Positions 20,409 to 46,397 of a stretch of DNA of 64,000 nucleotides are shown here, one piece after another (positions within the stretch are counted from its first letter, which is position 1; every line of letters begins with the position of its first letter). Source of the DNA: Candidatus Parcubacteria bacterium (lineage in GTDB: Bacteria > Patescibacteriota > Minisyncoccia > UBA6257 > 2-01-FULL-56-20); assembly GCA_003599135.1 (NCBI GenBank), contig QZIV01000007.1, forward strand, positions 3,944 to 67,943, written 5' to 3'. The position numbers were made by a program, and so were the translations under genes. The notes below the pieces were generated by a model. That model saw only the letters and a list, made by a program, of their open reading frames with translations, searched no databases and was not told where the DNA came from.

Positions 20409-20429
20409 ATCCTTCTCCGAGAACAGGTT

Positions 20430-21182: not shown

Positions 21183-21225
21183 AGAGAACAATGGTTAGTA
21201 TAGCAACGAAACTATCGCGAGCAAA

Positions 21226-23220
21226 TTATGTGATAAGGCGGGTTATTTCTTTTGCCACGGATACGGAATTTATGATTTTCCCTCCCAAAATTGAAAAACA
21301 ACCGAAACCGTGTTCCGTGACGTCCGAGGTCCTGGCATCGTCATGCTCTCTGTAGGCGTTTACTCCCCTTAACACGTAATGAATACGCAAAAGTTTTAGG
21401 TTTTTTAAAAACGGGAACCATTCCATGCTCCGGTCGATGATTTTTTTGGCGCGTGAGCGTTTGGCGCTTAGGAAAATGTTTTTCGGCACCAGACCGTCCT
21501 TGGGAACGAACCGCCGCAACACGGATTCCTTGATGTGCACGAGCGTAAATACGCCGTCGTCGTGTGTCGGGACTATATTTGTGAATTTCCCGTCCATGAC
21601 TGCGAGAGAGATTCGGGGGATATTGAGTTTGACCCACAACACCTCGACGAGGTCGAGGCGTAGGGGTTTTCGGGGGAATCCGAGCCATTTGCAGAAATTG
21701 TTGTATCGCGCGTACGTGGCGTTGATAACAGAATCAAATTGTTCCTCGTGCACAGCACCATCTTTCCTGACCCGGATGACTTTTTGTCCTGAGGGGAGTA
21801 TGCGGGCGTCGAGCACTTCGGTGTTGCGCCTCAAAGTGGCTTTCGAGCGCTTCAGTAGTTGTTCTGTAATGCGCTTAAGTTTTTTATAGTCGTAAATGGG
21901 CTCGAATGTTTTAATACACACGTCCGTTTTTTCTCGGTTCAAAAAGTTCTCTGATGGATATTCTATGACGTACGGGAGATTGTTCCTGTCGCAGAAATTC
22001 AGATATGCATCGGCGCCTACTTTCGATCCTTTTTTCGCGACGCTGTAATATGTCGGAAACTTTCTGATAATTGCTTTTGCATAGCGCTGTTCGAATTCGT
22101 TGATTGCTGAAAAAATGTCATCGACTGTTTTTTGACTCCGCGGGTAATGATATCCCCAGTGGTGCCGATATTGGTTTATCTTAGAAGCCTCGGAGAAAAT
22201 ATCCCCATTCTTTTCAAAGATCGTTACGTCGCAGTAGGGAGCAAGTTCGATTGCGCAGTTTGTCCCGAAGATGCCGCCCCCGATTATCGCAACTTTCCTC
22301 TTTGTGGGAGCTCCGGAAACGGATTTGCGTCCCATCGTTGCGACACGTACGATGCGGTGGCCGACGTCTGCGTCGGGATATTCGACTTTTTTCGAACGCA
22401 TAGCGCGCACAAATGTGCGTAGTTCGGCCTCAAGAGGAGACATGGGATCACTGCAGTCAATACGTTCTGCCACCGATCCATTTTTGTAGATGTGGATAGC
22501 GTTTTTCTCAAGGTCGCAAACCATGGTTTTGCTAGGAAATTGCAGGGTAACTATCCTCTTCTTTTCTTTGCCGGACCAGCCGATTTTGAGCAACGCATGT
22601 ATTCCTCGTTTATATACTAGACTGACCACGTGCATCCGGCCTTTGTCGTCCACGTTTTTTCTGGTTGGCATGGCGTCGAAGACGTAGTCGAGCATATCGA
22701 AGGGATGGAGCATCTCCAGTTCAACATCTCTTCCGGTATCGGTAGCGGCGGGGTTGATGAATTCGATCTGTACGGAACTCGGACGTTCTTTGATGGACCG
22801 AAGCAGTTTTCGGAGACGGATTATTGTCGGGTTGAAGCGGAATATATGCCCCACCATAAGAATATGGGGAGACTCTGCGGCGCGCTTTTTGAGCATCGCC
22901 GTTTCGTGTACCGTCGAGGCGAGCGGTTTTTCGACAAAGACGTTCACCCTCGGAAGACATTGAGATACGAGAGAAAAATGCGTGTTGGGCGGCGTCGCGA
23001 TATCTACGGCGTCAACACCGTCAAGGAGTGGCGGATCGAGCGCGTGATAAATAGGAAGCCTGTATTTTTTCTTTAGACGCTGCTCCTCGGTGACTGTACG
23101 CACAACCACGCCAGCAACCACAAGGACACCTTTTTCCCCGAGACCGATCAATGTTTCGAGGTGTTTTATTCCGAATCTGCCCGCACCTATGAGGAGGATG
23201 CGGGGTTTTTTCATGGGCAT
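21226..23220 (-). CDS. Fusion protein: N-terminal Gfo/Idh/MocA NAD(P)-oxidoreductase plus C-terminal FAD-dependent (DAO-like) oxidoreductase
   Basis: The N-terminus has KPRILLIGAGRFGIKHL...EKPLA (Gfo/Idh/MocA). From about residue 340 a second dinucleotide fold begins with KVAIIGGGIFGTNCAIELA (FAD GxGxxG). It is one uninterrupted ORF. Confidence 0.6.
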   Translation of the reverse strand: MPMKKPRILLIGAGRFGIKHLETLIGLGEKGVLVVAGVVVRTVTEEQRLKKKYRLPIYHALDPPLLDGVDAVDIATPPNTHFSLVSQCLPRVNVFVEKPLASTVHETAMLKKRAAESPHILMVGHIFRFNPTIIRLRKLLRSIKERPSSVQIEFINPAATDTGRDVELEMLHPFDMLDYVFDAMPTRKNVDDKGRMHVVSLVYKRGIHALLKIGWSGKEKKRIVTLQFPSKTMVCDLEKNAIHIYKNGSVAERIDCSDPMSPLEAELRTFVRAMRSKKVEYPDADVGHRIVRVATMGRKSVSGAPTKRKVAIIGGGIFGTNCAIELAPYCDVTIFEKNGDIFSEASKINQYRHHWGYHYPRSQKTVDDIFSAINEFEQRYAKAIIRKFPTYYSVAKKGSKVGADAYLNFCDRNNLPYVIEYPSENFLNREKTDVCIKTFEPIYDYKKLKRITEQLLKRSKATLRRNTEVLDARILPSGQKVIRVRKDGAVHEEQFDSVINATYARYNNFCKWLGFPRKPLRLDLVEVLWVKLNIPRISLAVMDGKFTNIVPTHDDGVFTLVHIKESVLRRFVPKDGLVPKNIFLSAKRSRAKKIIDRSMEWFPFLKNLKLLRIHYVLRGVNAYREHDDARTSDVTEHGFGCFSILGGKIINSVSVAKEITRLIT

Positions 23221-23222
23221 GG

Positions 23223-24146
23223 ATGATAGTATACCAATACATATTCGGAAAGAAATATGACGGTTACGAGAACCTGTCGCGCATGTGGTATAGTGATTTC
23301 TATCGCAACAGGCGTTCGCGCAATGCGGCGCGACATTCACACGTGTTCAAGAGATATCTTATACGGTTATATACGATTCTTCGGCGCAGTATTTTCGGCG
23401 GCCGCGGTTTGTCGAGATACAGAATTCTTCGCGAGCTCAATTTTCGTCTGGAGCGTTTTCTGCGCGGCGGAAGGAGAGAATATGTGGACTGCAAGGGACT
23501 GCGTTTTTTTCTTGACCCGAGGGGATCGCTCTCTCAGCCGTTTCACGAATACGAACCCGAGACGACTTCTTTCATCGAAAAAAACCTGAAAAACGGAGAC
23601 TTTTTCGTGGACGTGGGAGCTTCAATAGGATGGTTTACACTCATTGCTTCAAGAATCGTTGGAAAAGGAGGAGTCATCGCCGTTGAACCGAATCCAGTGG
23701 AGGCAGCTCTGTTGCGGAAAAATGTTGAGTACAATGCTTGTACGAATGTCGAGGTTATTGAGAGAGCCGCTGGAAACACCCGCGAGCGTCGGATTCTCTA
23801 TGTTGTTTCCGATATGCACACGGGGGGATCTCTGGAAGACCCGCGCATCGATCCAAGGAGGGATCCATCAGCACACCTTCTGGATTCCGAGGATCATACG
23901 GTCTACGAATACCCGGTTGAGGTTATACCCCTCGACGCCGTTGTTTCCCGTGCTAGTATGATAAAAATTGACGTTGAGGGGGCGGAATTCGAAGTCGTGA
24001 AGGGAATGTCTCAGGTTTTGCGACAGTATAGACCAATAGTCATTCTCGAACATCCGTCGCCGAAAACCAGGAGATTGATAGGATCCCTTGGTTACAAGGA
24101 AAAGTTTTTTTTCGATAAACTGAACACGGTTTTCTTCGCGTCATAG
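23223..24146 (+). CDS. FkbM-family SAM-dependent methyltransferase
   Basis: The FVDVGASIGWFTLIAS glycine-rich SAM motif matches the FkbM domain architecture. Confidence 0.65.
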   Translation: MIVYQYIFGKKYDGYENLSRMWYSDFYRNRRSRNAARHSHVFKRYLIRLYTILRRSIFGGRGLSRYRILRELNFRLERFLRGGRREYVDCKGLRFFLDPRGSLSQPFHEYEPETTSFIEKNLKNGDFFVDVGASIGWFTLIASRIVGKGGVIAVEPNPVEAALLRKNVEYNACTNVEVIERAAGNTRERRILYVVSDMHTGGSLEDPRIDPRRDPSAHLLDSEDHTVYEYPVEVIPLDAVVSRASMIKIDVEGAEFEVVKGMSQVLRQYRPIVILEHPSPKTRRLIGSLGYKEKFFFDKLNTVFFAS

Positions 24147-24152: not shown

Positions 24153-25124
24153 ATGATCTATAGCGATATTAAAAGCTTCAATAAACAGTTTGCGTGGGAC
24201 CGACATATCGAGAATGCCCGCGCGTTGAAGAAATTCAGGAACTATATTGTTATCGGCATGGGCGGTTCGCATTTTGCCGCCGATCTCATAAAAACCTGGC
24301 GACCGGATTTTCCAGTCGTCGTGTGGTCGAATTACGGCCTCCCTCCGTTGGCTCGTAAGGGGCTAAAAAAGAGCCTAGTTATCGCCACTTCTTATTCTGG
24401 GAACACGGAAGAAACAATTGACGCGCTCGAGTTAGCACTCAAGCGTAAGTTGAATATTGCTGTCATAGCGTCCGGCGGAAAACTGATTGCCATGGCCCGT
24501 AAATTTGGGATACCCTATGTCCTTGTTCCATCCGGCATCCAGCCGAGAGCGGCTCTGGGATACCTCCTCGTAGCGACGCTCACGGTCATGGGCGAGAAAC
24601 GGGCGCTGCGCGGTCTTCGCGAGCTTGCGGGAACGTTGCGCCCGGGTCGCTACGAGCAACAAGGGAAGAGTCTCGCGCGAAGACTGAGAAGAAGTGTACC
24701 CGTAATCTACGCTTCACCCAGAAATTATTCGGTCGCCTACAACTGGAAGATAAGACTCAACGAAACAGGAAAAATCCCAGCTTTCTATCACTTGGTGCCG
24801 GAGATGAATCACAATGAAATGATCGGTTTTGATGTGAACCGGAGCACGGTGTCTCTCTCCCGGCGTTTTCACTTCATTTTCCTTGAAGACCCCGACGACG
24901 ATCCGCGGATTCTGAAGAGAATGCGCGTGACGAGGAAACTCTTCGCAGGGCGTGGATTTCGGTCGGATGCAGTTCCACTCCGAGGCAGAAACGTTTGGGA
25001 GAAAGTGTTTTCCTCCATCGTTCTCGCGGATTGGGCATCGTACCATGTAGCAAGGCAATACCACTCCGAACCGGAAGCCGTAGCGATGATTGAAAAGTTC
25101 AAAAAACTGATTGCGAAGCAGTAA
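24153..25124 (+). CDS. Bifunctional phosphoglucose/phosphomannose isomerase family (SIS domain)
   Basis: IVIGMGGSHFAADL and a second SIS-like half occur in a ~320-aa ORF, as in archaeal-type PGI/PMI. Confidence 0.6.
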   Translation: MIYSDIKSFNKQFAWDRHIENARALKKFRNYIVIGMGGSHFAADLIKTWRPDFPVVVWSNYGLPPLARKGLKKSLVIATSYSGNTEETIDALELALKRKLNIAVIASGGKLIAMARKFGIPYVLVPSGIQPRAALGYLLVATLTVMGEKRALRGLRELAGTLRPGRYEQQGKSLARRLRRSVPVIYASPRNYSVAYNWKIRLNETGKIPAFYHLVPEMNHNEMIGFDVNRSTVSLSRRFHFIFLEDPDDDPRILKRMRVTRKLFAGRGFRSDAVPLRGRNVWEKVFSSIVLADWASYHVARQYHSEPEAVAMIEKFKKLIAKQ

Positions 25125-25146: not shown

Positions 25147-25177
25147 TTCAGTATTCGAATAGTATCTCAATACTGAA
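25147..25177. promoter_or_regulatory. Perfect 9-bp inverted repeat ending 3 nt before the ADH start; candidate operator
   Basis: The sequence is TTCAGTATT-cgaatagtatctc-AATACTGAA with an internal ATTCGAAT palindrome. A TATATT box lies at 25143-25148. Confidence 0.35.
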
Positions 25178-25179
25178 CC

Positions 25180-26232
25180 ATGCGCGCCTTATTATTCCGG
25201 GGACCTAACGACTATCGCGTCGAAGAACGGCCATTGCCGCAGATTGTCGAGGGCGACGTGTTGCTTAAGATCATCGCTTGCGGGCTCTGCGGCACCGACG
25301 TGAAGGTTCTTGGCAACGGCCACCGTGCGGTAAAGCCCCCGATGACGACGGGACACGAGATCGTGGGAGAAGTTGAGGAATCGAAATCGAGTGCGGCAGG
25401 AGTCGCGAAGGGGGACAACGTTCTTGTCGTGGCTCCAATCGGCTGCATGAAATGTAATTTTTGCCTTCGGGGAGAGCAGAATATTTGCCCAGTTGTCGTA
25501 GAGAGCGTACATGCTTTTGGCTACGATACCGACGGAGGATTTGCCGAGTACATGCGCGTACCGAAGGAAGCCGCCGACCAAGGCGTGCTTATCAAGATCC
25601 CGGAAACTTCGATTCCGCTTGCGTCATTCGCGATCGCGGAGCCGTTGGCTTGCGTCTTGAATGGCCAGGAAAAACTTCATATCTGTCCCGATGACACTGT
25701 TGTCGTGATCGGCGCGGGACCCATCGGGGTTCTACATGTGGTCGCGGCCCGGGCCGAAGGTGCGAAGAAGGTTATTCTTGCAGATGTGAATCCCGCAAAG
25801 CTCTCGCTTGCTGCTGGTGTTTGTGCCGACGCGCTTGTCGACAGCTCGAAAGAAAACCTTGTCGAACGCGTCCGCAAGGAAACGGAGGGACGCGGAGCGG
25901 ATGTCGTAATCGTCGCGGCGCCGGCGCCGTCGCTTCAGACCGAAGCAATCGAAATGGCGGCAGTCCGTGGGCGCGTGTCATTCTTCGCGGGTCTTGCGAA
26001 AGGAACTACATCGCCGCCTATCGATACGAACGCCATCCATTACCGCGAGATCGAGGTCTACGGGGCCTTCGGCGCGTGCCGGAAGCAGTATGAAAAAGCG
26101 ATGCACCTCATTCTTGACGGGAAGGTTAACCCTGCGCAGCTTATCACGCACACATTGCCGCTCGAAGACATTGAAAAAGCCGTGGATCTCATGAAGGCGG
26201 GACAGACGATTAAGGTTGTGATCGTGCCGTGA
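25180..26232 (+). CDS. Zn-dependent medium-chain polyol(-phosphate) dehydrogenase (sorbitol/threonine/galactitol-1-P dehydrogenase family; TarJ-like context)
   Basis: It has the GLCGTDV catalytic-Zn motif, a Cys cluster (CMKCNFCLRGEQNIC) for structural Zn, a DGGFAEY block and a GAGPIG Rossmann motif. Confidence 0.75.
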   Translation: MRALLFRGPNDYRVEERPLPQIVEGDVLLKIIACGLCGTDVKVLGNGHRAVKPPMTTGHEIVGEVEESKSSAAGVAKGDNVLVVAPIGCMKCNFCLRGEQNICPVVVESVHAFGYDTDGGFAEYMRVPKEAADQGVLIKIPETSIPLASFAIAEPLACVLNGQEKLHICPDDTVVVIGAGPIGVLHVVAARAEGAKKVILADVNPAKLSLAAGVCADALVDSSKENLVERVRKETEGRGADVVIVAAPAPSLQTEAIEMAAVRGRVSFFAGLAKGTTSPPIDTNAIHYREIEVYGAFGACRKQYEKAMHLILDGKVNPAQLITHTLPLEDIEKAVDLMKAGQTIKVVIVP

Positions 26233-26954
26233 ATATTGTCATTCCTTTGGCCGGCAAGGATCCGCGGTTTGTGGACATGCCTAAGGCCCTCGTCGACGTT
26301 TGCGGCAAGCTTTTTATTGCTCACATTCTTAAGCAACTCCGCATTGAACCCGAAGATCGTTTGATTTTTGTCGTGTTGGAAGAAGATGTGAAGAAATTTA
26401 ATATTGACGAAACACTAAAGAATGTCACGGGGAAGCGCGCAATCATTCGGGTTCTTCCTCGTGCGACGCAGGGGTCGCCGTGCTCGATTTTAGAAGCCGC
26501 GCGGGACTTGATTGATAACGAGACAGATCTTTTAATAGAACTCGGCGACGTGTTGCGAGATGTCGGCAATCTCTATCAAGATATCGCGGATCGTCGCTCC
26601 GAGGTTTCAGGGATCATCCCTGTTGAGCGGCGAGATATGACAGGCCGTCTTTTCGGCTACGTGCGTGCCGACGAAGAAGGGTTTGCGGAGGCGCTCCTCG
26701 AAAAGGAAGCAACGTACGTCGCTCCGTGGGCGACGATGGGGCTGTATTATTTTTCTCGCGGCAAAGATTTTGTCTGGGCAGCCGAGGAGATGATACGGAA
26801 ACGCAGTTTCGTTCATAACGACATGTTTTTCGTCGGGCCGGTGTATAATGAGCTGGTGAAGCGAGGAGATAAGGTTATTCTTTCACAGAATACCGTCAAG
26901 GCAGTGTTGGGGAGTCCAGAAGAAGTCGAAGCGTTCCACAAACAATGTGTTTGA
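26229..26954 (+). CDS. IspD/MobA-like sugar- or polyol-phosphate nucleotidyl(cytidylyl)transferase
   Basis: The GTG start overlaps the ADH stop (GTGA). The N-terminal IPLAGK...KAL..V.GK.LI.H motif has an NTP_transferase-like fold and the arrangement parallels tarI-tarJ. Confidence 0.55.
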   Translation: MNIVIPLAGKDPRFVDMPKALVDVCGKLFIAHILKQLRIEPEDRLIFVVLEEDVKKFNIDETLKNVTGKRAIIRVLPRATQGSPCSILEAARDLIDNETDLLIELGDVLRDVGNLYQDIADRRSEVSGIIPVERRDMTGRLFGYVRADEEGFAEALLEKEATYVAPWATMGLYYFSRGKDFVWAAEEMIRKRSFVHNDMFFVGPVYNELVKRGDKVILSQNTVKAVLGSPEEVEAFHKQCV

Positions 26955-27714
26955 GATTTTCGCGCATCGGGGGTTGATCGACGAATACCCCGAAAACAGC
27001 CTTCCGGCGCTTCGGGAAAGTTTTCGACGCGGTTTTGGGGTGGAAACCGATCTGCGCCTTACGAAAGACGGGGACTTCCTGATCATTCACGACGATACGT
27101 CTCTTCGGCTTATAGGGATGCGCCGGCGAGTTGAGGATGCAACTTTAAAAGAAGCTGAAACAATGCAGTATGCTCATTCCGATGAGCACCTCATCTCATT
27201 TCGCACATTTCTTACGATGGCCGCAAAAGAAAATAAGGGACACCAGATGGCCATTCATCTTAAAGCAGATGCCCAAGATGAGGCGGGACTTACTCTACTT
27301 GCAAAGTATTGGCGGGAATTTGATCTCTATAAAACGGCCTTTACGTTCGATCTTACGAAAAAAGCTGCAGTGTGTCTCAAAGAAATCGATCCTAAAATAC
27401 AAATTGCGCTTATCATTTCAGAATTCAAATTTGAACCGACAATTTACACGTGGGAAGAGGTTAAGGATTTTAAGCCCATGGATATTGTCTGGGCTGCCGA
27501 ATATAAGAAACTCTACAGTAAAAAGTTTATTGATGAGGTAAAAGCAACGGGGAGAACATTTTATGCAATGTCTCCAGATGTGCATTGGATTTTGAATCAC
27601 CCCTTGGGCTATGAGGGATACGAGAAAACGTGGGATGATCTCATTGCATGGGGCGCGGATGGAATTTGTACGGATTATCCGGAAAAACTCGCTAAATGTC
27701 TTACTCGTGGTTAG
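26947..27714 (+). CDS. Glycerophosphodiester phosphodiesterase (GDPD) family protein
   Basis: FAHRG...ENS.PA and E.DL..TKDG...HD motifs of the GDPD TIM-barrel are present. A GTG start is inferred. Confidence 0.65.
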   Translation: MFEIFAHRGLIDEYPENSLPALRESFRRGFGVETDLRLTKDGDFLIIHDDTSLRLIGMRRRVEDATLKEAETMQYAHSDEHLISFRTFLTMAAKENKGHQMAIHLKADAQDEAGLTLLAKYWREFDLYKTAFTFDLTKKAAVCLKEIDPKIQIALIISEFKFEPTIYTWEEVKDFKPMDIVWAAEYKKLYSKKFIDEVKATGRTFYAMSPDVHWILNHPLGYEGYEKTWDDLIAWGADGICTDYPEKLAKCLTRG

Positions 27715-27729
27715 GATATACCCAAACGT

Positions 27730-28476
27730 ATGAAAATCGTTATGCCGATGGCTGGCCGGGGGTCAAGATTTGCGAAAGCGGGCATCACGCAACCAAAGCC
27801 CCTGATTGAAGTACTTGGGAAAACCTTGGTTCAGTGGTCGGTTGAAGGAATGAAGATTACAAATCCCGGACTTGAGGACAAAGATTTTGTGTTCGTCTGC
27901 CACGCGGATCACGAGCGAGATTTCAAAATCGGCGAGAAACTGAGAGAGATAGTAGGACCGGGTATTGCTGTTCTTTTCACCCCAGTTGTTACAGAAGGCG
28001 CGGCGTGCACCGTGCTTTTGGCGAAAAAAGTAATTGACCCTGACGAAGATATGCTTATGTGCGACTCGGATCACTTTGTGGTATGCCCAGCGTTTCGGAG
28101 CGCTCGCGAAGAATCTCGGAAGCACGACTGGGGCGGCATCATTCCAACAATCGAAAGAGACAAGCCGCACTATTCCTATGCGCGCCTTGACGATCGAGGT
28201 AATGTGGTTGAAACCCGCGAGAAGCAGATGATTTCGACGCATGCCGCCGCGCTGTACTACTTCACGAAATGGAAATATTTTGTCTCTGCAGCAGAAGCGA
28301 TGATCGCGAAGAACGAGCGGCACAACAACGAATTCTATATGTGTCCTGTATACAACCACATCATTGCACAGGGACGCGTTGTGCGCACGGTGCCGGTTGA
28401 ACTCGCAATGCACCTCGGAACGCCGGAAGAAATGCAGTACTTCGTCGAACATGTCCCTATGCAGTATCGGACCTGA
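27730..28476 (+). CDS. Sugar-phosphate nucleotidyltransferase
   Basis: The N-terminus has MPMAGRGSRF...KPL (G-x-G-x-R nucleotide-binding loop) in a 248-aa ORF. Confidence 0.65.
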   Translation: MKIVMPMAGRGSRFAKAGITQPKPLIEVLGKTLVQWSVEGMKITNPGLEDKDFVFVCHADHERDFKIGEKLREIVGPGIAVLFTPVVTEGAACTVLLAKKVIDPDEDMLMCDSDHFVVCPAFRSAREESRKHDWGGIIPTIERDKPHYSYARLDDRGNVVETREKQMISTHAAALYYFTKWKYFVSAAEAMIAKNERHNNEFYMCPVYNHIIAQGRVVRTVPVELAMHLGTPEEMQYFVEHVPMQYRT

Positions 28477-28512
28477 ATTTACAAAGTGTTGAGAGGGGTG
28501 TAAAGTTCTCGC

Positions 28513-29376
28513 ATGCGATTGGGACGGTTGGTACTCACACATCGCGAGAAGTACATCGAGAAGCTCAAAAAGTTCTATCTCGATGCGAAGCGCACAGAGT
28601 TTTTGGTGGTTGCGTATAACCAGAAGACCGTTGATGTTTCGCGGTTCACTTCAACGGATTCGTTCAAACTAGTGCCTTACTGTGCGGGGGCAGAAGGCGA
28701 GTGTAGCGCGACGGGCCGGCAGTACCGCGTGTGGCTTTCCCACATAAAGCAATTTCCGGAAATCGAAGGATGGGTGGTGCATGATTACGATCTCGTCTGC
28801 CGCGTGCCAGACCGAGAGATTTTCTCGCGCATCAAACCAGATGAATACGCAATGATCGGAAAGGCTTTCCCTGTCCGGCAGGAAGGCATGAAGGATGCGG
28901 GCGTTGATACTTTCCCGTTCGCGCAAGATCATCGCCATTGGCATAAATTGAATCCTCCGAATCCAGTTGACGAAGAGGTGGATGCATTGCTCATGCGCAG
29001 ATTTCCGCATACATTTCAAGGCATCAAGACGATTTTGGGAGGTTACAGCGATTTTATTGCTACGTCGCGCAAGAATTTTTTACTACTTGACGATCCTGCA
29101 GTTAAGGATTTCTCCGCTGGAGGCAACGAGCAGATTCCGCATAGCATTTGGGGCGCAAAAGGGATACAGCCCGTCGATCTCAGGCCATGGTATAAGATGA
29201 AAATATCGCTTGACGTGATGTACATGCCGATGGATGCCCGCTACGACATGATTCACCCTGTAAAAATATGGGAAGGTGAGAGTGTTCCGCCTCGAGAGCG
29301 CGCCGGCAACGTAAAGCGGAAGCTCAAAAACTTCGTGAAATGGCTTATTGGCTATCAGGGCTGGAAGCGGACATAG
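28513..29376 (+). CDS. Hypothetical protein; possible divergent GT-A-like transferase
   Basis: No clear family. LVVAYNQ followed about 50 aa later by HDYDL loosely recalls a GT-A beta-strand plus DxD arrangement. It lies inside the sugar cluster. Confidence 0.3.
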   Translation: MRLGRLVLTHREKYIEKLKKFYLDAKRTEFLVVAYNQKTVDVSRFTSTDSFKLVPYCAGAEGECSATGRQYRVWLSHIKQFPEIEGWVVHDYDLVCRVPDREIFSRIKPDEYAMIGKAFPVRQEGMKDAGVDTFPFAQDHRHWHKLNPPNPVDEEVDALLMRRFPHTFQGIKTILGGYSDFIATSRKNFLLLDDPAVKDFSAGGNEQIPHSIWGAKGIQPVDLRPWYKMKISLDVMYMPMDARYDMIHPVKIWEGESVPPRERAGNVKRKLKNFVKWLIGYQGWKRT

Positions 29377-29428
29377 ATTGTACAAGCGAGTCCTCCTGCG
29401 GTAGAGTTTCGGGACTCAATTTCTTTGT

Positions 29429-30589
29429 ATGAAGCACACCGATCGTCTTGACGTTCTCCTCAAAGCGCGGCAATGCACCTTATTGGGCATAGGTCCGATG
29501 AGCAAGCTTTGTGTCGATGCTACGATAGAAATTGCGAACGAGCTTGATATCCCGCTCATGCTCATCGCCTCAAGGCGCCAGATCGAGGCTGCATCCCACG
29601 GCGGAGGGTACGTCAACGGCTGGACTACAGAAACTTTTGCAGAGTACGTGCGCACGCATGACGCGAAGTCCAATGTGCTTTTGGCGCGCGATCACGGCGG
29701 CCCGTGGCAGAATTATTCTGAGGTGAAAGGGGGCTTGAATCTCCAAGAAGCGATGAAATCCGCGAAGCAGTCTTATGAAACCGACATCAAATCGGGTTTC
29801 GATATGATTCACATTGATCCCTCGATCGACATTCACAAGCGCCCGTCATTCGAGGAGGTGCTGGAGCGACTTTTCGAACTTTATCTTCATTGCGTGGAAT
29901 ACGCCCGCTCGTTGGGGAAAGAAGTGTTTTTCGAATTCGGTACCGATGAGCAGGGGGAAGGGCTACATGACCTGGAAGAGCTAGAAGCTCTCACGGAAGA
30001 AATTACGGATTTCTGCAGCAAACACCGCCTCCCAAAACCTTATTTTGTAGTGGCACAGACGGGAGCTAAAGTGAAAGAAACGAAAAACGTCGGCGTCATT
30101 GCCGACCCCGGTGAATCTGGGGCAGTCAAAGCACAGCTCAAAAAGCTTGTTGCTATCTGTAACCGCTATGGCGTACGACTCAAAGGTCATAATGGCGACT
30201 ATTTATCAGACGATACTCTTCGGTGGCATCCTGAAATCGGTATTCATGCCCTGAACGTTGCTCCGGAGTTCGGCGTTGCGGAGACAAAGGCGCTCATCAA
30301 GGTGTGCGATGATCTTGGCCTCAAAAGCGAGCGAGATCAATTTCTCACGCTTGCTCTCAATTCCCGCAAGTGGGACAAGTGGCTTCTCGCCGATACAAAA
30401 GCCACGGATTTCGATCGTGCAGTGATTGCCGGTCATTATGTGTTTGCGACGCCGGAGTTTACGAAGATTAAAGCTCGAATTGCCTTTGCAAGCCGCGCCC
30501 GAGGATTGGATCTCGATCAGTACTTGAAGGAAGCAATTAAGTCGTCTATCATGCGCTATGTGTCAAGTTTGAACTTATCTCATGGTTGA
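29429..30589 (+). CDS. GatZ/KbaZ-family protein (tagatose-6-phosphate 4-epimerase / tagatose-bisphosphate aldolase accessory family)
   Basis: Blocks IASRRQIEA...GGGYVNGWT.ETF.EYV, LLARDHGGPW and FDMIHIDPS align with GatZ blocks IEATSNQV..FGGYTGMTP.DFREFV, ILGGDHLGPNCW and FSKIHLDAS. Confidence 0.7.
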   Translation: MKHTDRLDVLLKARQCTLLGIGPMSKLCVDATIEIANELDIPLMLIASRRQIEAASHGGGYVNGWTTETFAEYVRTHDAKSNVLLARDHGGPWQNYSEVKGGLNLQEAMKSAKQSYETDIKSGFDMIHIDPSIDIHKRPSFEEVLERLFELYLHCVEYARSLGKEVFFEFGTDEQGEGLHDLEELEALTEEITDFCSKHRLPKPYFVVAQTGAKVKETKNVGVIADPGESGAVKAQLKKLVAICNRYGVRLKGHNGDYLSDDTLRWHPEIGIHALNVAPEFGVAETKALIKVCDDLGLKSERDQFLTLALNSRKWDKWLLADTKATDFDRAVIAGHYVFATPEFTKIKARIAFASRARGLDLDQYLKEAIKSSIMRYVSSLNLSHG

Positions 30590-31067
30590 TCTTGTTGAGT
30601 ATTTGAACGAACTGTTCAACGGAGAGGGGGCGGTGGGTACACCGAAAGACGCACCCCTGGGTTTTGTCGTCAGAAGCTTTTCCAACATTAAGAAAGTGGT
30701 GAAACCCTGGGGTTTTGAACTTTGGCTTTCTGATGCAACCGAGACTCCATACGCTCTGAAAGTCCTTTACGTCAAGAAAGGAACCAAAACCAGTTTGCAA
30801 GTTCATCGGAAGAAAGCTGAACATAATACTGTTTTTTCCGGCAGAGCGAGGTTTTATTACGAAGACAAGAGTAAAGAACTCAAGTCGGTTGACATGGGCC
30901 CGGGTCATGTAGTGATGGTTTTACCTGGTATGGTTCACCGCTTGGAGGCTCTTACCGACCTTGTCCTCTTCGAAGGTTCTACTTCAGAGCTCGACGACGT
31001 GATACGCCTTGCCGATGATTACAAGCGCCCCGACGGAAAGATTGCATCGGAGCATGGTGCGGCATGA
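30582..31067 (+). CDS. Cupin-domain protein (mannose-6-phosphate isomerase type II C-terminal-like / sugar-nucleotide epimerase-like)
   Basis: The KPWGFELWL motif and a cupin core with His (QVHRKK...H) are present. It overlaps the upstream gene by 8 nt. Confidence 0.5.
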   Translation: MVDLVEYLNELFNGEGAVGTPKDAPLGFVVRSFSNIKKVVKPWGFELWLSDATETPYALKVLYVKKGTKTSLQVHRKKAEHNTVFSGRARFYYEDKSKELKSVDMGPGHVVMVLPGMVHRLEALTDLVLFEGSTSELDDVIRLADDYKRPDGKIASEHGAA

Positions 31068-31160
31068 AAGTTCTCCGCACGACGCTCGATGCAAGATGAA
31101 GAAAGATGAAGAATTGTACGGCCCTCATGCATGTTTTAAGAGGAAGAAAAACGTGAATCC

Positions 31161-31898
31161 ATGAGTTATTCGCTCATTCTGGGAGGTACCAAGGGATTGG
31201 GATTTGCCCTGGCCCGGGAATCGGCGCTGAGGGGCATAGAGCCAATTGTAACCGGTCGGTCCGCGGCCGATCCGGGAGTCGCCGCTTCTCTTCCGCAAAA
31301 CGCAATCCGGATCGCGATGGATCTGACTGACGACGAAAGTATTGACGAGGCCTTGCGCAACCTGGATCAATACACAGTAGATTACTTTTTCTGGAACGCC
31401 GGCATCTGGCCAGGGAGGGTACCGTTTCGGCAACTTTCGGTGACAGATATAGACGACGTAATTGCCACGAATTTCACAGGACCTCTTAAACTGTTGCGGC
31501 GATTTCACGAAACGCGCGTTTCACAAGGACGTCCGTACCGTCTTGTCGCTATCTCGTCGGCGTCTGCATGGCTAGTCCGCAAAAACGAAACGGTATACTG
31601 CGCCTCGAAGGATGCACAAGCGGTGTTCGTTCTGAACTTCGCAGACGAGTTGGCGCAAGAGCTGCCCGGGTCTCAAGCCACCATTTTTTACCCGGGCGGC
31701 ATGAAAACAGAAATCTTCAAGGGCAATGTTCAGGACACAAGCGGCTACATGGAGCCCGCTTCAGTTGCGAAGGCTGTGTGGGACGAGGTAATGGGGCAGA
31801 AGGAAATTTGCCGCGAGGTGCACATCATTCGCAACAAAGAAAAAAATGACGGGTCGTTTACGATTGAGTACGGCCCGAGGCCGAGGGGGGTTCAATAG
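31161..31898 (+). CDS. Short-chain dehydrogenase/reductase (SDR)
   Basis: LILGGTKGLG Rossmann motif, NAG.W and YCASK catalytic motif (Y-x3-K). Confidence 0.7.
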   Translation: MSYSLILGGTKGLGFALARESALRGIEPIVTGRSAADPGVAASLPQNAIRIAMDLTDDESIDEALRNLDQYTVDYFFWNAGIWPGRVPFRQLSVTDIDDVIATNFTGPLKLLRRFHETRVSQGRPYRLVAISSASAWLVRKNETVYCASKDAQAVFVLNFADELAQELPGSQATIFYPGGMKTEIFKGNVQDTSGYMEPASVAKAVWDEVMGQKEICREVHIIRNKEKNDGSFTIEYGPRPRGVQ

Positions 31899-31942: not shown

Positions 31943-32905
31943 ATGAATAAATCTTTTTGGAACGGGAAACGAGTCGCAGTTCCGGGAGGGGGAGGATTTT
32001 TGGGATCGCGAATCGTAGAACGCCTGCAAGCCGCAGGAGCAGAAATTGCGGTACCGAGAACCTCGGAGGGAGTTGATTTCCGGCGCGAAGAGGACTGCCA
32101 TAACTATTTCAAGACTACGAAGCCCGAGATTGTCGTGAATTGCGCGGCGATTCAGGGAGGTATCGGATATCACAAGGGCAAGGAAGCGAGCCTCTTTTTG
32201 GATAACACGAAGATGGGCTTGTTCCTTATGGAAGCCGCGCAGGCGTCGGGAGCAAAAAAGTTCGTGAACATTGTTGCCGGGTGTTCGTACCCCGGTTATC
32301 TCGAGAAAGACGAACTGAACGAGGATGATTACTGGAACGGCGAAGTACACGAATCCATTTTCAGCTACGGATTCTCACGCAAGGCGAGTGTTGCCTACGG
32401 CACGGCCTTAAAACGCCAATATGGATGGAATTCGATCCATCTCATACTAGCGAATATGTACGGCCCCGGAGAGCATTTTAATCCCGAGCAGTCAAAAGCG
32501 CTCGCGGGGCTTACGAAAAAAATCTATGATGCCAAAAAGTCAGGCGCGCAAACGGTAGAAATCTGGGGGACCGGGAAACCGGTTCGCGATTGGCTGTACG
32601 TTGAGGACGGCGCCGAAGGGATCCTCCGAGCCGCCGAAGTGTACGACGACGTTTCGCCGTTGAATATCGCAAGCGGCGTCGGCGTCTCCGTGACTGAACT
32701 TGCCGAGATTATCAAGCGAATCGTCGGTTATGAAGGGAGCTTCGCATATAATACGAGCCGCCCGGATGGTGCGATAAAAAAAACCTTCGGTGTTCGGAAG
32801 ATGAAAGAAAAACTGCATTGGCTGCCGGAGACGCCCCTTGAAGAGGGCATTCGCTCAACACTCTCGTGGCTTGACGCAAACTACGAGCATGCCGTCACAC
32901 ACTAG
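31943..32905 (+). CDS. GDP-L-fucose synthase-like NAD(P)-dependent epimerase/reductase (paralog 3)
   Basis: PGGGGFLGS Rossmann motif, ANMYGPGEHFNPEQSKALAGL (Fcl-like block) and 320 aa. Confidence 0.55.
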   Translation: MNKSFWNGKRVAVPGGGGFLGSRIVERLQAAGAEIAVPRTSEGVDFRREEDCHNYFKTTKPEIVVNCAAIQGGIGYHKGKEASLFLDNTKMGLFLMEAAQASGAKKFVNIVAGCSYPGYLEKDELNEDDYWNGEVHESIFSYGFSRKASVAYGTALKRQYGWNSIHLILANMYGPGEHFNPEQSKALAGLTKKIYDAKKSGAQTVEIWGTGKPVRDWLYVEDGAEGILRAAEVYDDVSPLNIASGVGVSVTELAEIIKRIVGYEGSFAYNTSRPDGAIKKTFGVRKMKEKLHWLPETPLEEGIRSTLSWLDANYEHAVTH

Positions 32906-33692
32906 AACAGTGGGAATCATCGGCGGCAAAGGACTTCTGGGATCGGATCTTGTGGAGCATCTTGGGAAAGACTTTGAGTCTATTTCCATCGACAAGGACA
33001 ACTACGAAACTCATCGCGGCGCCTCATTCGACGTCCTCGTGAACGCAAACGGCAACAGCCGCCGGTTTTGGGCGAACGACAACCCCCGGGAAGATTTCTC
33101 CGCTTCCACGATATCGGTGTATAACAGTACCACCGACTTCCATTTTAAAAAATATGTTTACATTTCTTCAAGCGATGTGTATGAGAACCACGAAGAATCG
33201 GATGCGACAAAAGAAAATGTTTTAATCCGCCCGGAAGGGCTTTCTCCGTATGGATTACATAAATATCTTGCGGAGCAGGTTGTGAGGAATCGCACCGACA
33301 ATTTCCTTATTCTGCGATCTTCGATGATACTCGGTGCGAATTTGAAAAAGGGTCCGTTCTACGATATACTGCACGGGTCCCCGCTCTTTATCACCGCCGA
33401 CTCGCGCCTCCAGGCAATCTCTACCTCTGTCATCGCAGACGTCATTCGCCATCTCATCACGAGCGACCGGCGGAACGAAGTATTCAACATGGGCGGCCAA
33501 GAGACGTTCAATTTTCAAGATCTCTCTACATTCGTATCCCTACCCGTTTCTTTCAGGCAGGATGCCGAGCGCCAGATTTACGAGATGAATGTCGATAAAC
33601 TGAAATCAATCTATCCGCTCAAAACGTCAACCGAATACGTTGGAGAATTCCTCTCTCACTATGTCACCGAGAAAACACACCAAGAAAACTAA
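32889..33692 (+). CDS. RmlD-like NAD(P)-dependent sugar-nucleotide 4-reductase (paralog A)
   Basis: VGIIGGKGLLGSDL is followed by short-SDR YxxxK (YGLHKYLAE). The ATG is at 32889 inside a longer track ORF. It is a clear paralog of 37168..37941. Confidence 0.55.
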   Translation: MPSHTRTVGIIGGKGLLGSDLVEHLGKDFESISIDKDNYETHRGASFDVLVNANGNSRRFWANDNPREDFSASTISVYNSTTDFHFKKYVYISSSDVYENHEESDATKENVLIRPEGLSPYGLHKYLAEQVVRNRTDNFLILRSSMILGANLKKGPFYDILHGSPLFITADSRLQAISTSVIADVIRHLITSDRRNEVFNMGGQETFNFQDLSTFVSLPVSFRQDAERQIYEMNVDKLKSIYPLKTSTEYVGEFLSHYVTEKTHQEN

Positions 33693-34665
33693 ACCCGGAA
33701 AGCCGACGAAGGGTACTCAGAACTTTTCGCCGCCTTCCCGAGTTCTCATCACGGGAGGCGCGGGGTATGTTGGGTCCACGCTTGCGGGAGAGTTATTGCG
33801 GGAAGGGTATGGCGTGACCGTTCTCGACTCGCTCAAGTTCGGAGCCCAGGGGCTCATGCCGTATTTCGGAGACGCTCGATTTCGCTTTGTGAAAGGGGAT
33901 GTCCGCGACAGCCGTGCGGTGAAAGAAGCATTGAAAGATGTGAGTGTTGTCGTGCATCTCGCCGGAATCGTCGGGTTCCCGGCATGTCGGAAAGACCCCA
34001 AAGGATCCCAGGACATCAACGTTCGCGGCACGAAAGTAGTCGTGGACGCAACGCCGAAAAACGTCCCCGTCTTGTTCGCTTCGACCGGGTCGAGTTATGG
34101 CAAGATGATCGAGAAATTCTGTACGGAAACGACTCCGCTCAATCCCCTAAGCGACTACGCGCGACAAAAAGCCGAAGCCGAGGATATCGTGAAGCGTCAC
34201 AAAGAATTTGTGATCTATCGCTTCGCGACCGCTTTTGGAGTAAGTCCCCGCATGCGGCTCGACCTTTTGCCGAATGATTTTACATATCGCGCCGTAAAGG
34301 ATAAAACACTCATCGTCTATGAGAAGCATTTTATGCGGACATTCATCCACGTTCGCGACATGGCGCGAGCGTTTATTTTCGCTATCAAGAACTACCGGCG
34401 CATGCGGGGCGAAGTCTACAATGTAGGCAGTAACGATATGAACTACAGCAAAGAGGACATCTGTTTGATTATCAAAGAACGAGTCGATTACTACCTGCAC
34501 TTTGCGGACGTCGGTCACGACCTTGATCAGAGGGATTACATGGTGTCGTACGACAAGATTCACGGCGTTGGGTTTGCGCCATCTGTCTCGATGCATCAGG
34601 GAATCGAGGAGTTGATTAAGATGAGCGAAGCGATCGAAATACAGAACCCGCACTATAATGCATAA
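33661..34665 (+). CDS. NAD-dependent epimerase/dehydratase family protein
   Basis: VLITGGAGYVGS Rossmann motif and YxxxK (YARQK). A Lys-rich N-terminal tail is present and the ATG at 33661 is preferred over the track's TTG at 33640. Confidence 0.65.
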   Translation: MSPRKHTKKTKPGKPTKGTQNFSPPSRVLITGGAGYVGSTLAGELLREGYGVTVLDSLKFGAQGLMPYFGDARFRFVKGDVRDSRAVKEALKDVSVVVHLAGIVGFPACRKDPKGSQDINVRGTKVVVDATPKNVPVLFASTGSSYGKMIEKFCTETTPLNPLSDYARQKAEAEDIVKRHKEFVIYRFATAFGVSPRMRLDLLPNDFTYRAVKDKTLIVYEKHFMRTFIHVRDMARAFIFAIKNYRRMRGEVYNVGSNDMNYSKEDICLIIKERVDYYLHFADVGHDLDQRDYMVSYDKIHGVGFAPSVSMHQGIEELIKMSEAIEIQNPHYNA

Positions 34666-35944
34666 ATCCGAAACGGCCATCGCGCGCACCACGTGCAGGG
34701 TGTGCGGCTCAAACGCGCTCGTCCCGATTCTTTCTCTGGGCGAGCTCTACGTTTCAAATTTTGTTGACGAAGCAACGGAAGGCGCCGCGTTCAAGGCGCC
34801 GCTCGATGTAGTGTTGTGCGCTACGGAGAGCGGCGGGTGCGGACTTTTGCAGCTCAAGCACACCGTCTCGCATGAAGCGATGTATCGGAATTATTGGTAT
34901 CGGTCCGGGATGAATCTGACAATGACAGAGCAACTGAAAGACGTCGCGCAGGCCGTGGAGCGGATTGTCGACCTCCGTGTAGGGGACTATGTTGTCGACA
35001 TCGGCGCAAATGACGGCACGCTCCTTCGGAGCTACACGGCGCAGGGACTCAAGCGAACTGGTTTTGAGCCCGCGCACAACCTCGAGAAATGGAACGTGGT
35101 CGGAACGACAAAAGTGATAAACGACTTTTTCAGTTACGACTCGTGGACGCGCGAGTTTGGAGCCGCGCGCGCGAAAGCGGTGACTGCGATTGCAATGTTT
35201 TACGATCTCGAAGATCCGAACAAGTTTGTTGCCGACGTGAAGAAGTTGCTCCACGACGAAGGAATATTCGTGATTCAGATGAGTTATCTTCCGCTCATGC
35301 TTTCCCAAAATGCGTTTGATAACATTTGCCACGAGCACGTAGAGTACTATTCCCTGCTTTCCTTGGAAAATCTTTTAACACGGCATGGCCTCGAGGTATG
35401 CGACGTTGAACTCAACGATGTGAATGGGGGGAGTTTTAGAACGTACATTCGGCACAGCAGGAAAGGAGCGCAGCTCCGTATTCCTCAAGAAGCCGAAGCG
35501 AGAATCAAGTCGCTTCGAAAGGCAGAGCTCTCTCAAGGCATCCATCGCCGAGATGCGTACGGGGCATTTGTTGACAGGGTGCTCAAGATAAAAGATAGGT
35601 TGCGGAGTTTTATTGAAGAGGAGGCGGGACGCGGGAAAAAGGTGTACGTGTACGGCGCATCGACAAAGGGCAATACTCTTCTTCAATTTTTCGGTCTCGA
35701 TCACCGGCTCATAGAAGCCGCGGCGGAGCGCAATCCAGATAAATGGGGAAAAAAAACAGTAGGCACGAAAATACCGATTATTTCCGAAGAGCAGGCGCGC
35801 AAAGAGAAGCCGGATTATTTTCTTATCCTGCCTTGGCACTTCTTGAAAGAATTTAAGGAACGGGAAAGCGACTTTTTGCGGGCCGGCGGCAGGTTTATCG
35901 TCCCTCTCCCGAGCTTCAAGGTTATAGGAGCGGCGGAAGAGTAA
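34658..35944 (+). CDS. TylCIII-type NDP-sugar C-methyltransferase family (N-terminal Zn ribbon, SAM MTase, C-terminal domain)
   Basis: N-terminal CRVCGS...C (zinc finger), a DIGANDG SAM motif, ~428 aa and the characteristic C-terminal domain. Confidence 0.6.
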   Translation: MHKSETAIARTTCRVCGSNALVPILSLGELYVSNFVDEATEGAAFKAPLDVVLCATESGGCGLLQLKHTVSHEAMYRNYWYRSGMNLTMTEQLKDVAQAVERIVDLRVGDYVVDIGANDGTLLRSYTAQGLKRTGFEPAHNLEKWNVVGTTKVINDFFSYDSWTREFGAARAKAVTAIAMFYDLEDPNKFVADVKKLLHDEGIFVIQMSYLPLMLSQNAFDNICHEHVEYYSLLSLENLLTRHGLEVCDVELNDVNGGSFRTYIRHSRKGAQLRIPQEAEARIKSLRKAELSQGIHRRDAYGAFVDRVLKIKDRLRSFIEEEAGRGKKVYVYGASTKGNTLLQFFGLDHRLIEAAAERNPDKWGKKTVGTKIPIISEEQARKEKPDYFLILPWHFLKEFKERESDFLRAGGRFIVPLPSFKVIGAAEE

Positions 35945-35959
35945 GACCTCCTACTTGTT

Positions 35960-37162: not shown

Positions 37163-37167
37163 CAATC

Positions 37168-37941: not shown

Positions 37942-38080
37942 CACACCAATTTTTTTATGGATTTCCATTCGGGCGTCTCTCTTTGATCTAACGACGCACT
38001 TACGGGCGAACAACCGTCAACACCTGGTTACAGCGGGAGACATGCACAAAAAAGTTTTTGACATCGTAGCGCGGTGATTG

Positions 38081-38109
38081 TTGACACTCTTTGTCCTCGG
38101 TCATAGAAT
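38081..38109 (+). promoter_or_regulatory. Strong sigma70-type promoter for rfbB, predicted leaderless
   Basis: TTGACA (38081-38086), an exact 17-nt spacer and TAGAAT (38104-38109). The rfbB ATG at 38117 lies 7 nt downstream of the -10. Confidence 0.5.
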
Positions 38110-38116
38110 ATCCATT

Positions 38117-45779: not shown

Positions 45780-45785
45780 AAAAGA

Positions 45786-46394: not shown

Positions 46395-46397
46395 CGC

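Follow-up and report, generated by a model that had tools for sequence, protein, structure and literature searches.

Known CDP-alditol pathways use cytidylyltransferases of the PF01128 family, and the two described CDP-hexitol systems, Mnp1/Mnp2 (CDP-mannitol) and Campylobacter jejuni HS5.18/HS5.17 (CDP-6-D-glucitol), pair such an enzyme with an extended short-chain dehydrogenase/reductase (SDR) of the PF01370 family (PMC10918830). Nucleoside diphosphate (NDP)-hexitol pathways are already known in principle. A 2025 study reported that Escherichia coli GatZ and KbaZ epimerize fructose-6-phosphate (F6P) to tagatose-6-phosphate (T6P) at C4 (PMC11907403). The present study concerns a 64,000-nt stretch (the window) of a contig from Candidatus Parcubacteria, a member of the candidate phyla radiation (CPR), and within it a nine-gene run, g02 to g10, that lies in a surface-glycan locus. 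Next to nothing is known about the surface glycans of CPR bacteria, which live as uncultured episymbionts. For this run, the original prediction was a tarIJ-like pathway in which a GatZ/KbaZ-family protein, a dehydrogenase, and a cytidylyltransferase yield an activated hexitol phosphate. With somewhat less than even confidence, we instead read the region as a mosaic: precursor modules, each conserved separately, brought together in a CPR surface-glycan locus of the Wzx/Wzy type.

The open reading frames (ORFs) and their translations were checked by Pfam and NCBIfam scans. The genes named in the original prediction are indeed there, as a plus-strand run with Pfam matches. Furthermore, the synteny at 60 to 80% amino-acid identity in three other CPR contigs, namely L002 and L003 (Liptonbacteria) and the CPR relative L088, shows that they are real. 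Together with the window, these contigs are called the four CPR loci below. The nine genes are as follows.

24153-25124, + strand: g02, bifunctional phosphoglucose/phosphomannose isomerase (PGI/PMI) of the archaeal SIS type (PF10432, 135.9 bits; TIGR02128, 226.2 bits against a cut-off of 213.9)
25180-26232, + strand: g03, Zn-dependent medium-chain dehydrogenase/reductase (MDR) (PF08240 and PF00107)
26229-26954, + strand: g04 (NT1), divergent nucleotidyltransferase (PF00483, 26.5 bits)
26947-27714, + strand: g05, GDPD-family phosphodiesterase (PF03009, 76.4 bits, profile positions 1-244 of 244)
27730-28476, + strand: g06 (NT2), canonical nucleotidyltransferase (PF00483, 34.8 bits)
28513-29376, + strand: g07, orphan glycosyltransferase-like protein recognized by its GT-A fold, with no Pfam or NCBIfam match
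29429-30589, + strand: g08, GatZ/KbaZ-like protein (PF08013, 32.6 bits against a gathering score of 26.7)
30582-31067, + strand: g09, PMI-type cupin, similar to type II phosphomannose isomerase (PF01050, 38.3 bits against 23.6)
31161-31898, + strand: g10, classical SDR oxidoreductase (PF00106, 90.3 bits)

Thus, the cupin, SDR, GDPD, and second nucleotidyltransferase expected in this cluster are borne out by PF01050, PF00106, PF03009, and PF00483, respectively. The NCBI proteins of the source organism include matches at 100% identity to the GatZ-like, NT2, and g07 proteins, on a 68.7-kb contig. Judged by homology and gene neighborhood, the run appears to split three ways: the GatZ-like protein and the cupin, with PGI/PMI as their likely feeder; GDPD, NT2, and g07, with NT1 as a lineage-specific paralogue; and the MDR with the SDR.

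The GatZ-like subfamily comprises 3,280 homologues, mostly about 389 amino acids (aa) long, and occurs in 245 species-level genomes of many phyla. We clustered the ORFs around 80 of its loci. The recurrent neighbors are a 274-aa protein without a known family (72/80 loci), a PMI-type cupin (71/80), an approximately 526-aa fusion of a nucleotidyltransferase and an APH-type kinase (67/80), a KdsC-type HAD phosphatase (66/80), and a methyltransferase (47/80). The five core genes (GatZ-like, HAD, 274-aa protein, cupin, and nucleotidyltransferase-kinase) stand together in 57 of the 80 loci and are joined by the methyltransferase in 40. True orthologues of the MDR, NT1, GDPD, NT2, g07, or SDR were found near the GatZ-like gene in 2/80 loci, L002 and L003, both close CPR relatives of the window; a partial set is also present in one Saccharibacteria locus. 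Neither the MDR nor NT1 accompanies the GatZ-like gene in any of the 78 non-CPR loci. Among long contigs, a GatZ-cupin pair stripped of the rest of the cassette is confined to CPR loci (the window, L002, and L003). The proposed link between GatZ and an MDR/NT1 pathway does not hold against these counts, and a chain leading from GatZ through the MDR to NT1 is unsupported by the comparative data. Recognizable glycan genes, such as DegT aminotransferases, ABC or MurJ-type exporters, GT2 enzymes, and UDP-glucose dehydrogenase, lie near the GatZ-like gene in at least 48 of the 80 loci. Therefore, the premise that GatZ/KbaZ proteins are not normally found in polysaccharide loci is wrong for this subfamily.

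The conserved cassette (loci L004 to L081, e.g., L016 9447-15048) has hosts that include Prochlorococcus, Synechococcus, Pelagibacteraceae, Legionella, and Geobacter. Profile searches of the PDB gave no match for the 274-aa protein, nor for the APH half of the nucleotidyltransferase-kinase fusion. Two plasmid-borne homologues of the GatZ-like protein are intermediate, at 37 to 42% identity. On Sinorhizobium pSym (L172), the gene accompanies a cupin, a DegT aminotransferase, an HAD-IA protein, and a DeoR regulator. On the Klebsiella pneumoniae IncR plasmid pCAV1016-90 (L171), it lies with a fructose-type phosphotransferase system (PTS), a transaldolase, a transketolase, and an HAD protein, a setting that looks catabolic. 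The PTS/transaldolase/transketolase-linked homologue is the 37%-identical one, and its neighborhood fits ketose-phosphate chemistry.

The assignment of g08 to PF08013 was confirmed, with the family match covering residues 20-174 only; all but one of the homologues listed for g08 also carry PF08013. An AlphaFold2 (AF2) model of g08 (pLDDT 87.7) has the class II aldolase TIM-barrel with the C-terminal helical extension of GatZ/AgaZ. Its best whole-length Foldseek matches are the GatZ/AgaZ structures 3txv and 2fiq (TM 0.73-0.76, E 1e-15), and class II fructose-bisphosphate aldolases rank behind them (TMq about 0.5). In GatZ, the proposed catalytic or metal-binding residues are D87, H88, E171, and H257, and the family-specific contacts are C20, E44, and K279 (PMC11907403). 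Residues D88-H89, D173/E174, and H254 of g08 align with D87-H88, E171, and H257, and 16 subfamily members share D88, H89, E174, and H254 without exception. The contacts differ: g08 has Ser25 for Cys20, Ala/Ile at the Glu44 position, and Asn276 for Lys279, the last matching the NVATE motif of GatY. With E. coli GatZ, g08 shares 21% identity, and it scores 27 bits on the agaZ/gatZ equivalog TIGR02810, against a cut-off of 568.8. No GatY-like gene lies nearby, and the neighbors are glycan-synthesis genes. Alignment and model alike indicate that g08 is a remote but true PF08013 member with intact catalytic residues, in a distinct subfamily of about 389 aa. It is predicted to epimerize a ketose phosphate at C4 through Zn-dependent retro-aldol chemistry, or else to act on it as an aldolase. 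Its cupin partner, g09, carries the Q-x-H...E-H and H-R-L-E motifs of the C-terminal PMI cupin, as SLQVHRKKAEH and VHRLE, and matches TIGR01479 at positions 356-467, the C-terminal PMI domain. These motifs are comparable to those of AlgA-type enzymes.

The original prediction had placed the dehydrogenase-coupled nucleotidyltransferase in the IspD/TarI family, an assignment that our profile searches contradict. NT1 matches PF00483 alone and gives no PF01128 match. NT2 falls short of the PF01128 cut-off of 27, with 18.2 bits over its N-terminal 40 residues only. On TIGR00453 (ispD), NT1 and NT2 score 16.3 and 15.9 bits, respectively, against a cut-off of 181. The sole solved relative of either is 4evw, an uncharacterized Vibrio cholerae 'NDP-sugar pyrophosphorylase' (E 4e-15 for NT2). 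By these matches, both proteins belong to a separate PF00483-type family of about 245 aa, not to the IspD/TarI family. NT1 and NT2 are 31 to 33% identical. In an alignment of 16 family members, NT2 keeps the canonical nucleotide loop G-R-G-S-R-F...K (MAGRGSRF...KPL) and a D-x-D site (CDSDHF). In contrast, NT1 has an altered loop, G-K-D-P-R-F (LAGKDPRF), and ELGD (ELGDVL) where NT2 has D-x-D. The PF00483 signature, a G-x-G-[ST]-R...K loop together with a D-x-D metal site, is thus present in NT2 and missing from NT1. This observation makes the dehydrogenase-coupled gene the degenerate paralogue, and NT1 may be a non-canonical or accessory subunit. NT2 has 2,513 homologues, some of them fused to SnoaL.

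GDPD and NT2 are partners well beyond the window. The translation of GDPD, full-length on its Pfam profile, keeps the motifs FAHRG (HRG), ENS, ETD (E..ETD), and HDD intact. Its gene adjoins an NT2 orthologue in the comparison contigs L002, L085/86, L088, L089, and L090, and in L003 the called ORFs of the two are about 120 nt apart. Counting CPR and non-CPR loci together, the two genes stand side by side, or almost so, in seven. In L085/86, GDPD-NT2-g07 leads into the FkbM, epimerase, C-methyltransferase, and glycosyltransferase genes also seen in the window, without the MDR, NT1, GatZ, cupin, or SDR. L089 has an MDR orthologue (54% identical) next to GDPD-NT2, together with a second MDR-like gene, a small cupin, and a GT2 gene, with no PGI, NT1, or GatZ there. 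L088 holds both modules side by side and complete, in the order PGI-MDR-x-NT1-HAD-x-GDPD-x-NT2-SDR-GatZ-cupin-cupin, plus the nucleotidyltransferase-kinase fusion and a g07 paralogue. L090 encodes a RuBisCO-like protein, GDPD, a nucleotidyltransferase, an HAD of the beta-phosphoglucomutase (beta-PGM)/HxpB type, a xylulokinase-like FGGY kinase, and a further nucleotidyltransferase, with the KdsC-type HAD and the 274-aa protein of the GatZ cassette upstream. In this run (4801-10723), the RuBisCO-like protein is of the form-IV type (weak OiaX/MtnW matches) and stands directly upstream of GDPD, an unusual setting; an ABC exporter and a sulfotransferase follow.

A metagenome scan seeded with the NT2 family yielded 80 loci (L091 to L170), mostly with HAD-nucleotidyltransferase fusions of about 40% identity, and was uninformative on the MDR or NT1. 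The NT2-family ORFs in this set are mostly about 455 aa long, with an N-terminal beta-PGM-type HAD-IA domain in the member examined, and many of the fusions probably come from phages. In 39 of the 80 loci there is a 147-aa mini GDPD-like protein that matches the catalytic N-terminus of GDPD (hhalign probability 95.9%, E 5e-9). A cupin of about 100 aa was also seen near the HAD-nucleotidyltransferase fusions. The NT2 family further occurs beside WavE-family proteins on Azospirillum plasmids and in other bacterial loci (L082 to L084), and among glycosyltransferases in cyanomyophages (L173, Synechococcus phage S-CAM9, 5341-6726). Azospirillum and Rhizobium plasmids carry two or three nucleotidyltransferase copies; the one inspected (L174, Azospirillum lipoferum) has a WavE-family neighbor.

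The third member of this module, g07, is rare: a search of 5.8 billion proteins turned up 23 homologues, all at least 41% identical, and a profile search of 1.84 billion gave 11 representatives. Its AF2 model (pLDDT 92) has a GT-A fold closest to Leloir glycosyltransferases, and the motif H90-D91-Y92-D93 (H-D-Y-D, DxD) is invariant. L088 carries two g07 paralogues. It is the likely consumer, as transferase, of the NT2 product: g07 is paired with NT2 in this role only as a probable reading. The possibility that g07 and the 274-aa cassette protein are distant homologues was rejected, with profile-profile probabilities of 0.9% and 0.1%.

The data show the gene families, folds, conserved catalytic residues, and patterns of co-occurrence; for the mosaic reading, we infer from there the substrates, products, order of steps, and phosphate transfer to C1. 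In module 1 (g02, g08, and g09), PGI/PMI would convert glucose-6-phosphate or mannose-6-phosphate to F6P, which is a plausible feedstock because the isomerase gene passes its equivalog cut-off and lies directly upstream. Next, g08 would invert C4 by Zn-dependent retro-aldol/aldol chemistry, giving T6P from F6P as reported for E. coli GatZ, and the cupin would turn the ketose-6-phosphate into an aldohexose-6-phosphate, talose-6-phosphate by analogy with F6P to mannose-6-phosphate. In module 2 (g05, g06, and g07, with the divergent g04), the NT2-family enzyme would form an NDP-activated donor and g07 would move the sugar onto the glycan, with the GDPD-like phosphodiesterase as an obligate-looking, unexplained partner. 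In the CPR lineage, module 2 would replace the nucleotidyltransferase-kinase fusion, KdsC-like phosphatase, and 274-aa protein of the usual cassette. The MDR and SDR would serve as redox tailoring enzymes, for which reduction of a hexitol-phosphate precursor or of an NDP-ketose is possible. The combination of an isomerase, a kinase, a phosphatase, a nucleotidyltransferase, and an extra epimerase-like enzyme in the canonical cassette argues for an NDP-sugar product. It is conceivable, though we regard it as doubtful, that the GatZ-like/cupin subfamily defines an unrecognized, widespread nucleotide-sugar pathway in which C4 is set on the sugar phosphate by a retro-aldol epimerase to yield a rare hexose (e.g., a talose-type sugar) or a hexitol phosphate, with activation taken over in CPR by GDPD-like/NT2/g07. 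Such a pathway, in which C4 would not be set on the NDP-sugar by an SDR epimerase, may span Prochlorococcus and SAR11 to CPR.

Several points weigh against the mosaic reading. No enzyme within 24.1-31.9 kb shifts the phosphate from C6 to C1, and the candidates for this step, an HAD-IA protein at 47692-48414 and HddA/GmhB, lie 13-20 kb away. The model also leaves the MDR, SDR, GDPD, and NT1 without a necessary role, although the MDR, NT1, and GDPD genes are translationally coupled. Furthermore, the PGI-MDR synteny, GDPD, and the FGGY kinase of L090 fit NT2-family action on terminal phosphate esters (polyol or ketose phosphates) rather than on sugar-1-phosphates, so that NDP-polyol models stay in play. 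Because the four CPR loci are close relatives, they do not count as independent observations. Finally, neither the GatZ-like cassette nor the NT2 module has a characterized member in the literature searched; searches for GatZ/AgaZ/KbaZ in loci of O antigen, capsule, or flagellin glycosylation, for 4evw, and for CDP-2-glycerol enzymes gave nothing relevant beyond PMC11907403 and PMC10918830. The HAD-IA protein (47692-48414, - strand) is 27% identical to the beta-PGM-like HAD of L090 and has an atypical motif I, F-D-L-E-G versus D-x-D-G; it could be the missing phosphomutase or phosphatase.

Among the alternatives, the one that survives best, though still unlikely, starts from the dehydrogenase. 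As predicted, g03 is a Zn-dependent MDR with the motifs GLCGTD and DGGFAEY and four structural-Zn cysteines, and the catalytic Zn ligands are also kept. It reaches no NCBIfam equivalog cut-off: the best score is for threonine dehydrogenase (TDH; 196 bits against 380), followed by IolM (181) and GatD (124). In the PDB, archaeal TDH 2dfv ranks first (158 bits), ahead of ketose reductase (138), sorbitol dehydrogenase (124), and GatD 4a2c (98). Pairwise identity is 29% to E. coli GatD and 29% to E. coli Tdh. The suggested polyol-dehydrogenase kinship thus stands to the extent that these scores place the MDR in a polyol/threonine-dehydrogenase clade, but it is not specifically GatD-like. The Asp that ends beta-2 (VILADV/VILADVN) argues for NAD rather than NADP, so the enzyme is probably NAD(H)-specific. 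PGI/PMI lies directly upstream of the MDR in all four CPR loci, and the order PGI, MDR, (extra gene), NT1 is kept in each. In the three relatives, the gene between the MDR and NT1 encodes a 314-aa protein, a Nudix-like 241-aa protein, or a 244-aa protein, and the MDR-NT1 overlap of the window is absent from all three. In this alternative, PGI/PMI, the MDR, and NT1 and/or NT2 could form a non-orthologous analogue of Mnp1/Mnp2 and HS5.18/HS5.17 that leads from F6P through NDP-6-fructose to NDP-glucitol or NDP-mannitol, or makes the hexitol phosphate first, while the GatZ-cupin pair independently makes another precursor. The conserved gene order, the clade of the MDR with ketose reductase 1e3j and sorbitol dehydrogenases among its top PDB matches, and the precedent of CDP-hexitol formation from F6P by two enzymes (PMC10918830) are in its favor, and the xylulokinase-like FGGY kinase beside the NT2-family genes of L090 suggests terminal-phosphate substrates. 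Against it, the known pathways rely on PF01128 and PF01370 enzymes, the nucleotide loop of NT1 is degenerate, L089 has the MDR without PGI or NT1, no polyol-phosphate transferase was identified, and the conserved order comes from loci that are not independent.

A second alternative, which we consider rather improbable, takes GDPD-NT2 as a salvage route to CDP-glycerol or a related CDP-polyol. Here, GDPD would free sn-glycerol-3-phosphate from scavenged glycerophosphodiesters, NT2 would activate it, and g07 would add the phospho-polyol or glycerol to the glycan. Such a route would suit CPR bacteria, dependent as they are on scavenged lipids, and the intact GDPD motifs, the GDPD-NT2 pairing in seven loci, and the GDPD-like partner in the metagenome set are consistent with it, as are the FGGY-family kinase of L090 and its HAD, which is related to hexitol phosphatase/beta-PGM. 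However, that kinase scores best as a xylulokinase and not as a glycerol kinase, the 147-aa mini proteins retain only the N-terminal motif region of GDPD, and g07 resembles a Leloir glycosyltransferase; glycerol-3-phosphate cytidylyltransferases are known from other families.

Lower still in probability is the model of the original prediction, in which F6P would pass to T6P by the GatZ-like protein, to a hexitol phosphate (galactitol-1-phosphate or an altritol type) by the MDR, and to CDP-hexitol by NT1/NT2, for a teichoic-acid-like polymer. It accounts for much of what is seen: the MDR, nucleotidyltransferases, and an intact GatZ-family enzyme are indeed in one operon-like run, with every required enzyme class represented and PGI/PMI upstream; the MDR and NT1 are translationally coupled; neither gene set is seen without the other in the four CPR loci; GatZ-family enzymes do yield T6P; and E. 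coli GatD, which acts on galactitol-1-phosphate, is of the same MDR superfamily. However, it fails outside CPR, where the MDR and NT1 are missing from the GatZ-like loci and the constant cupin partner would have no role. TarJ-type reductases are typically NADPH-dependent, whereas the MDR, equidistant from GatD and Tdh, is apparently NAD-specific. No TagF/TarL, LicD/fukutin, or Stealth-type transferase or polymerase was found by Pfam family among the 49 window ORFs scanned, and the sole adjacent transferase has a Leloir-type GT-A fold. Nor is the arrangement "exactly" that of tarJ-tarI, abp, or mnp, given nucleotidyltransferases outside PF01128, a degenerate P-loop in NT1, and an extra gene in three relatives.

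Least probable is that the GatZ-like protein is a true class II aldolase on a higher-carbon or branched ketose phosphate, followed by cupin isomerization and KdsC-type dephosphorylation: its fold with the Asp-His, acidic, and His residues, its GatY-like Asn276 and other altered contacts (Ser25/Cys20, Asn276/Lys279), and a cassette phosphatase of the Kdo-8-phosphate/KDN-9-phosphate type, normally for long-chain sugar phosphates, would fit, but no cassette gene supplies the aldehyde acceptor, the closest characterized relatives (GatZ/KbaZ) are epimerases or non-catalytic, and the upstream PGI/PMI points to a hexose-6-phosphate.

The nine genes of the run are tightly packed. The predicted GTGA coupling was found, the MDR stop TGA overlapping the NT1 start GTG at 26229, and NT1 orthologues start MNIVIPLAGKDPR at the same position. 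This overlap is not special, as 8-nt overlaps also occur at NT1/GDPD and at GatZ/cupin. A promoter and terminator scan of 22.8-32.2 kb gave counts not above those in shuffled sequence. Given the overlaps and the lack of any excess of such sites, the run looks like one operon. The SDR varies in position among the relatives: it is on the opposite strand and upstream of PGI in L002 and L003, and no orthologue of g10 was detected in L088. The 55-nt gap between PGI/PMI and the MDR holds a perfect 9-nt inverted repeat (25147-25177), TTCAGTATT ... AATACTGAA, with a 13-nt spacer, which stops 2 nt before the MDR ATG and lacks a T-run. Possible roles are as a hairpin that affects translation or RNA stability, or as a binding site for a protein.

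Housekeeping genes extend to about 11 kb of the window, and one large surface-glycan locus spans 11.2 kb to about 56 kb. It encodes two Wzy_C-type proteins, a flippase of the Wzx type, an initiating transferase (Bac_transf), and numerous glycosyltransferases, along with a series of SDR epimerase/dehydratases and a C-methyltransferase similar to TylC3. The stretches 44757-47688 (+ strand), 31943-39172, and 43610-44716 include a GDP-mannose-4,6-dehydratase-like gene and at least six further SDR epimerase/reductases, and the C-methyltransferase is at 34658-35944. This gene set suggests heavily modified, possibly C-methylated, deoxy-heptoses in the CPR glycan. Two paralogous RmlD-like genes, g12 (32838-33692) and g16 (37168-37941), both match the same L003 gene at about 49%. 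A 447-aa ORF at 39725-41068 overlaps the preceding GT2 gene (39159-40064) by about 340 nt; its orthologue covers only about 75% of it, and its true start is probably further downstream. A YfhO-like 834-aa membrane protein adjoins a GT2 (17904-21191, - strand); in Firmicutes, such a pair adds sugars to teichoic acids extracellularly. Upstream of this pair, a 704-aa protein (21226-23340, - strand) joins a GFO_IDH_MocA oxidoreductase to an FAD oxidoreductase of the DAO type.

The locus indicates that CPR bacteria assemble complex, heptose-rich glycans. Some of its parts are taken from two precursor cassettes that are common in cyanophages and environmental bacteria. If the GatZ-like/cupin pair does set hexose stereochemistry on the phosphate, it would be a new entry route to nucleotide-sugar diversity and would explain thousands of genes mis-annotated as 'tagatose-6-phosphate kinase' or 'non-catalytic aldolase subunit'. 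The enzyme families are all known; the biology behind them may be new, since the literature searched offers no characterized representative of the two cassettes. Labeling an MDR next to a nucleotidyltransferase as tarIJ from motifs alone would have spread a wrong annotation.

Like TarI/TarJ and the pneumococcal CDP-arabinitol system, the window has an MDR gene adjoining, here overlapping, the gene of a GT-A-fold nucleotidyltransferase in an envelope glycan locus. In contrast to them, its nucleotidyltransferases are not of the PF01128/IspD type and the coupled copy has a degenerate P-loop; its MDR is apparently NAD-specific and not specifically related to any characterized polyol-phosphate dehydrogenase; and the two genes are separated by another in L002, L003, and L088, with L089 carrying the MDR without NT1. 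The approximately 526-aa cassette partner recalls LicC/LicA, a CTP:phosphocholine cytidylyltransferase and a choline kinase that are fused as LicCA in some bacteria: it combines an N-terminal nucleotidyltransferase with a C-terminal APH-type kinase, and its best solved relative is LicC (1jyk). However, the fusion is absent from the window, the LicC match is weak (E 2e-9, nucleotidyltransferase domain only), and sugar-1-phosphate nucleotidyltransferases score nearly as well. The canonical GatZ cassette also resembles the GDP-heptose pathway (GmhA/HddA/GmhB/HddC) in having a ketose-phosphate isomerase (the cupin), a kinase, an HAD phosphatase, and a nucleotidyltransferase. It differs in using a PMI cupin instead of an SIS isomerase, an APH-type instead of a GHMP kinase, and a KdsC-type HAD, and in its extra C4-epimerase-like step; the window itself is without the kinase, HAD, and cognate nucleotidyltransferase.

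With Mnp1/Mnp2 and HS5.18/HS5.17, the window shares a plausible F6P feedstock and a nucleotidyltransferase and reductase that could give an NDP-hexitol in two steps; unlike them, it has PF00483-like nucleotidyltransferases, an MDR, and a classical SDR. With E. coli GatZ/KbaZ, g08 has in common the PF08013 family, the fold, and the conserved Asp-His, acidic, and His residues. It is, however, about 35 residues shorter and 21% identical, with altered proposed substrate contacts, and its setting is biosynthetic, amid glycan loci and with a PMI cupin, rather than that of galactitol/GalNAc catabolism with GatY/KbaY.

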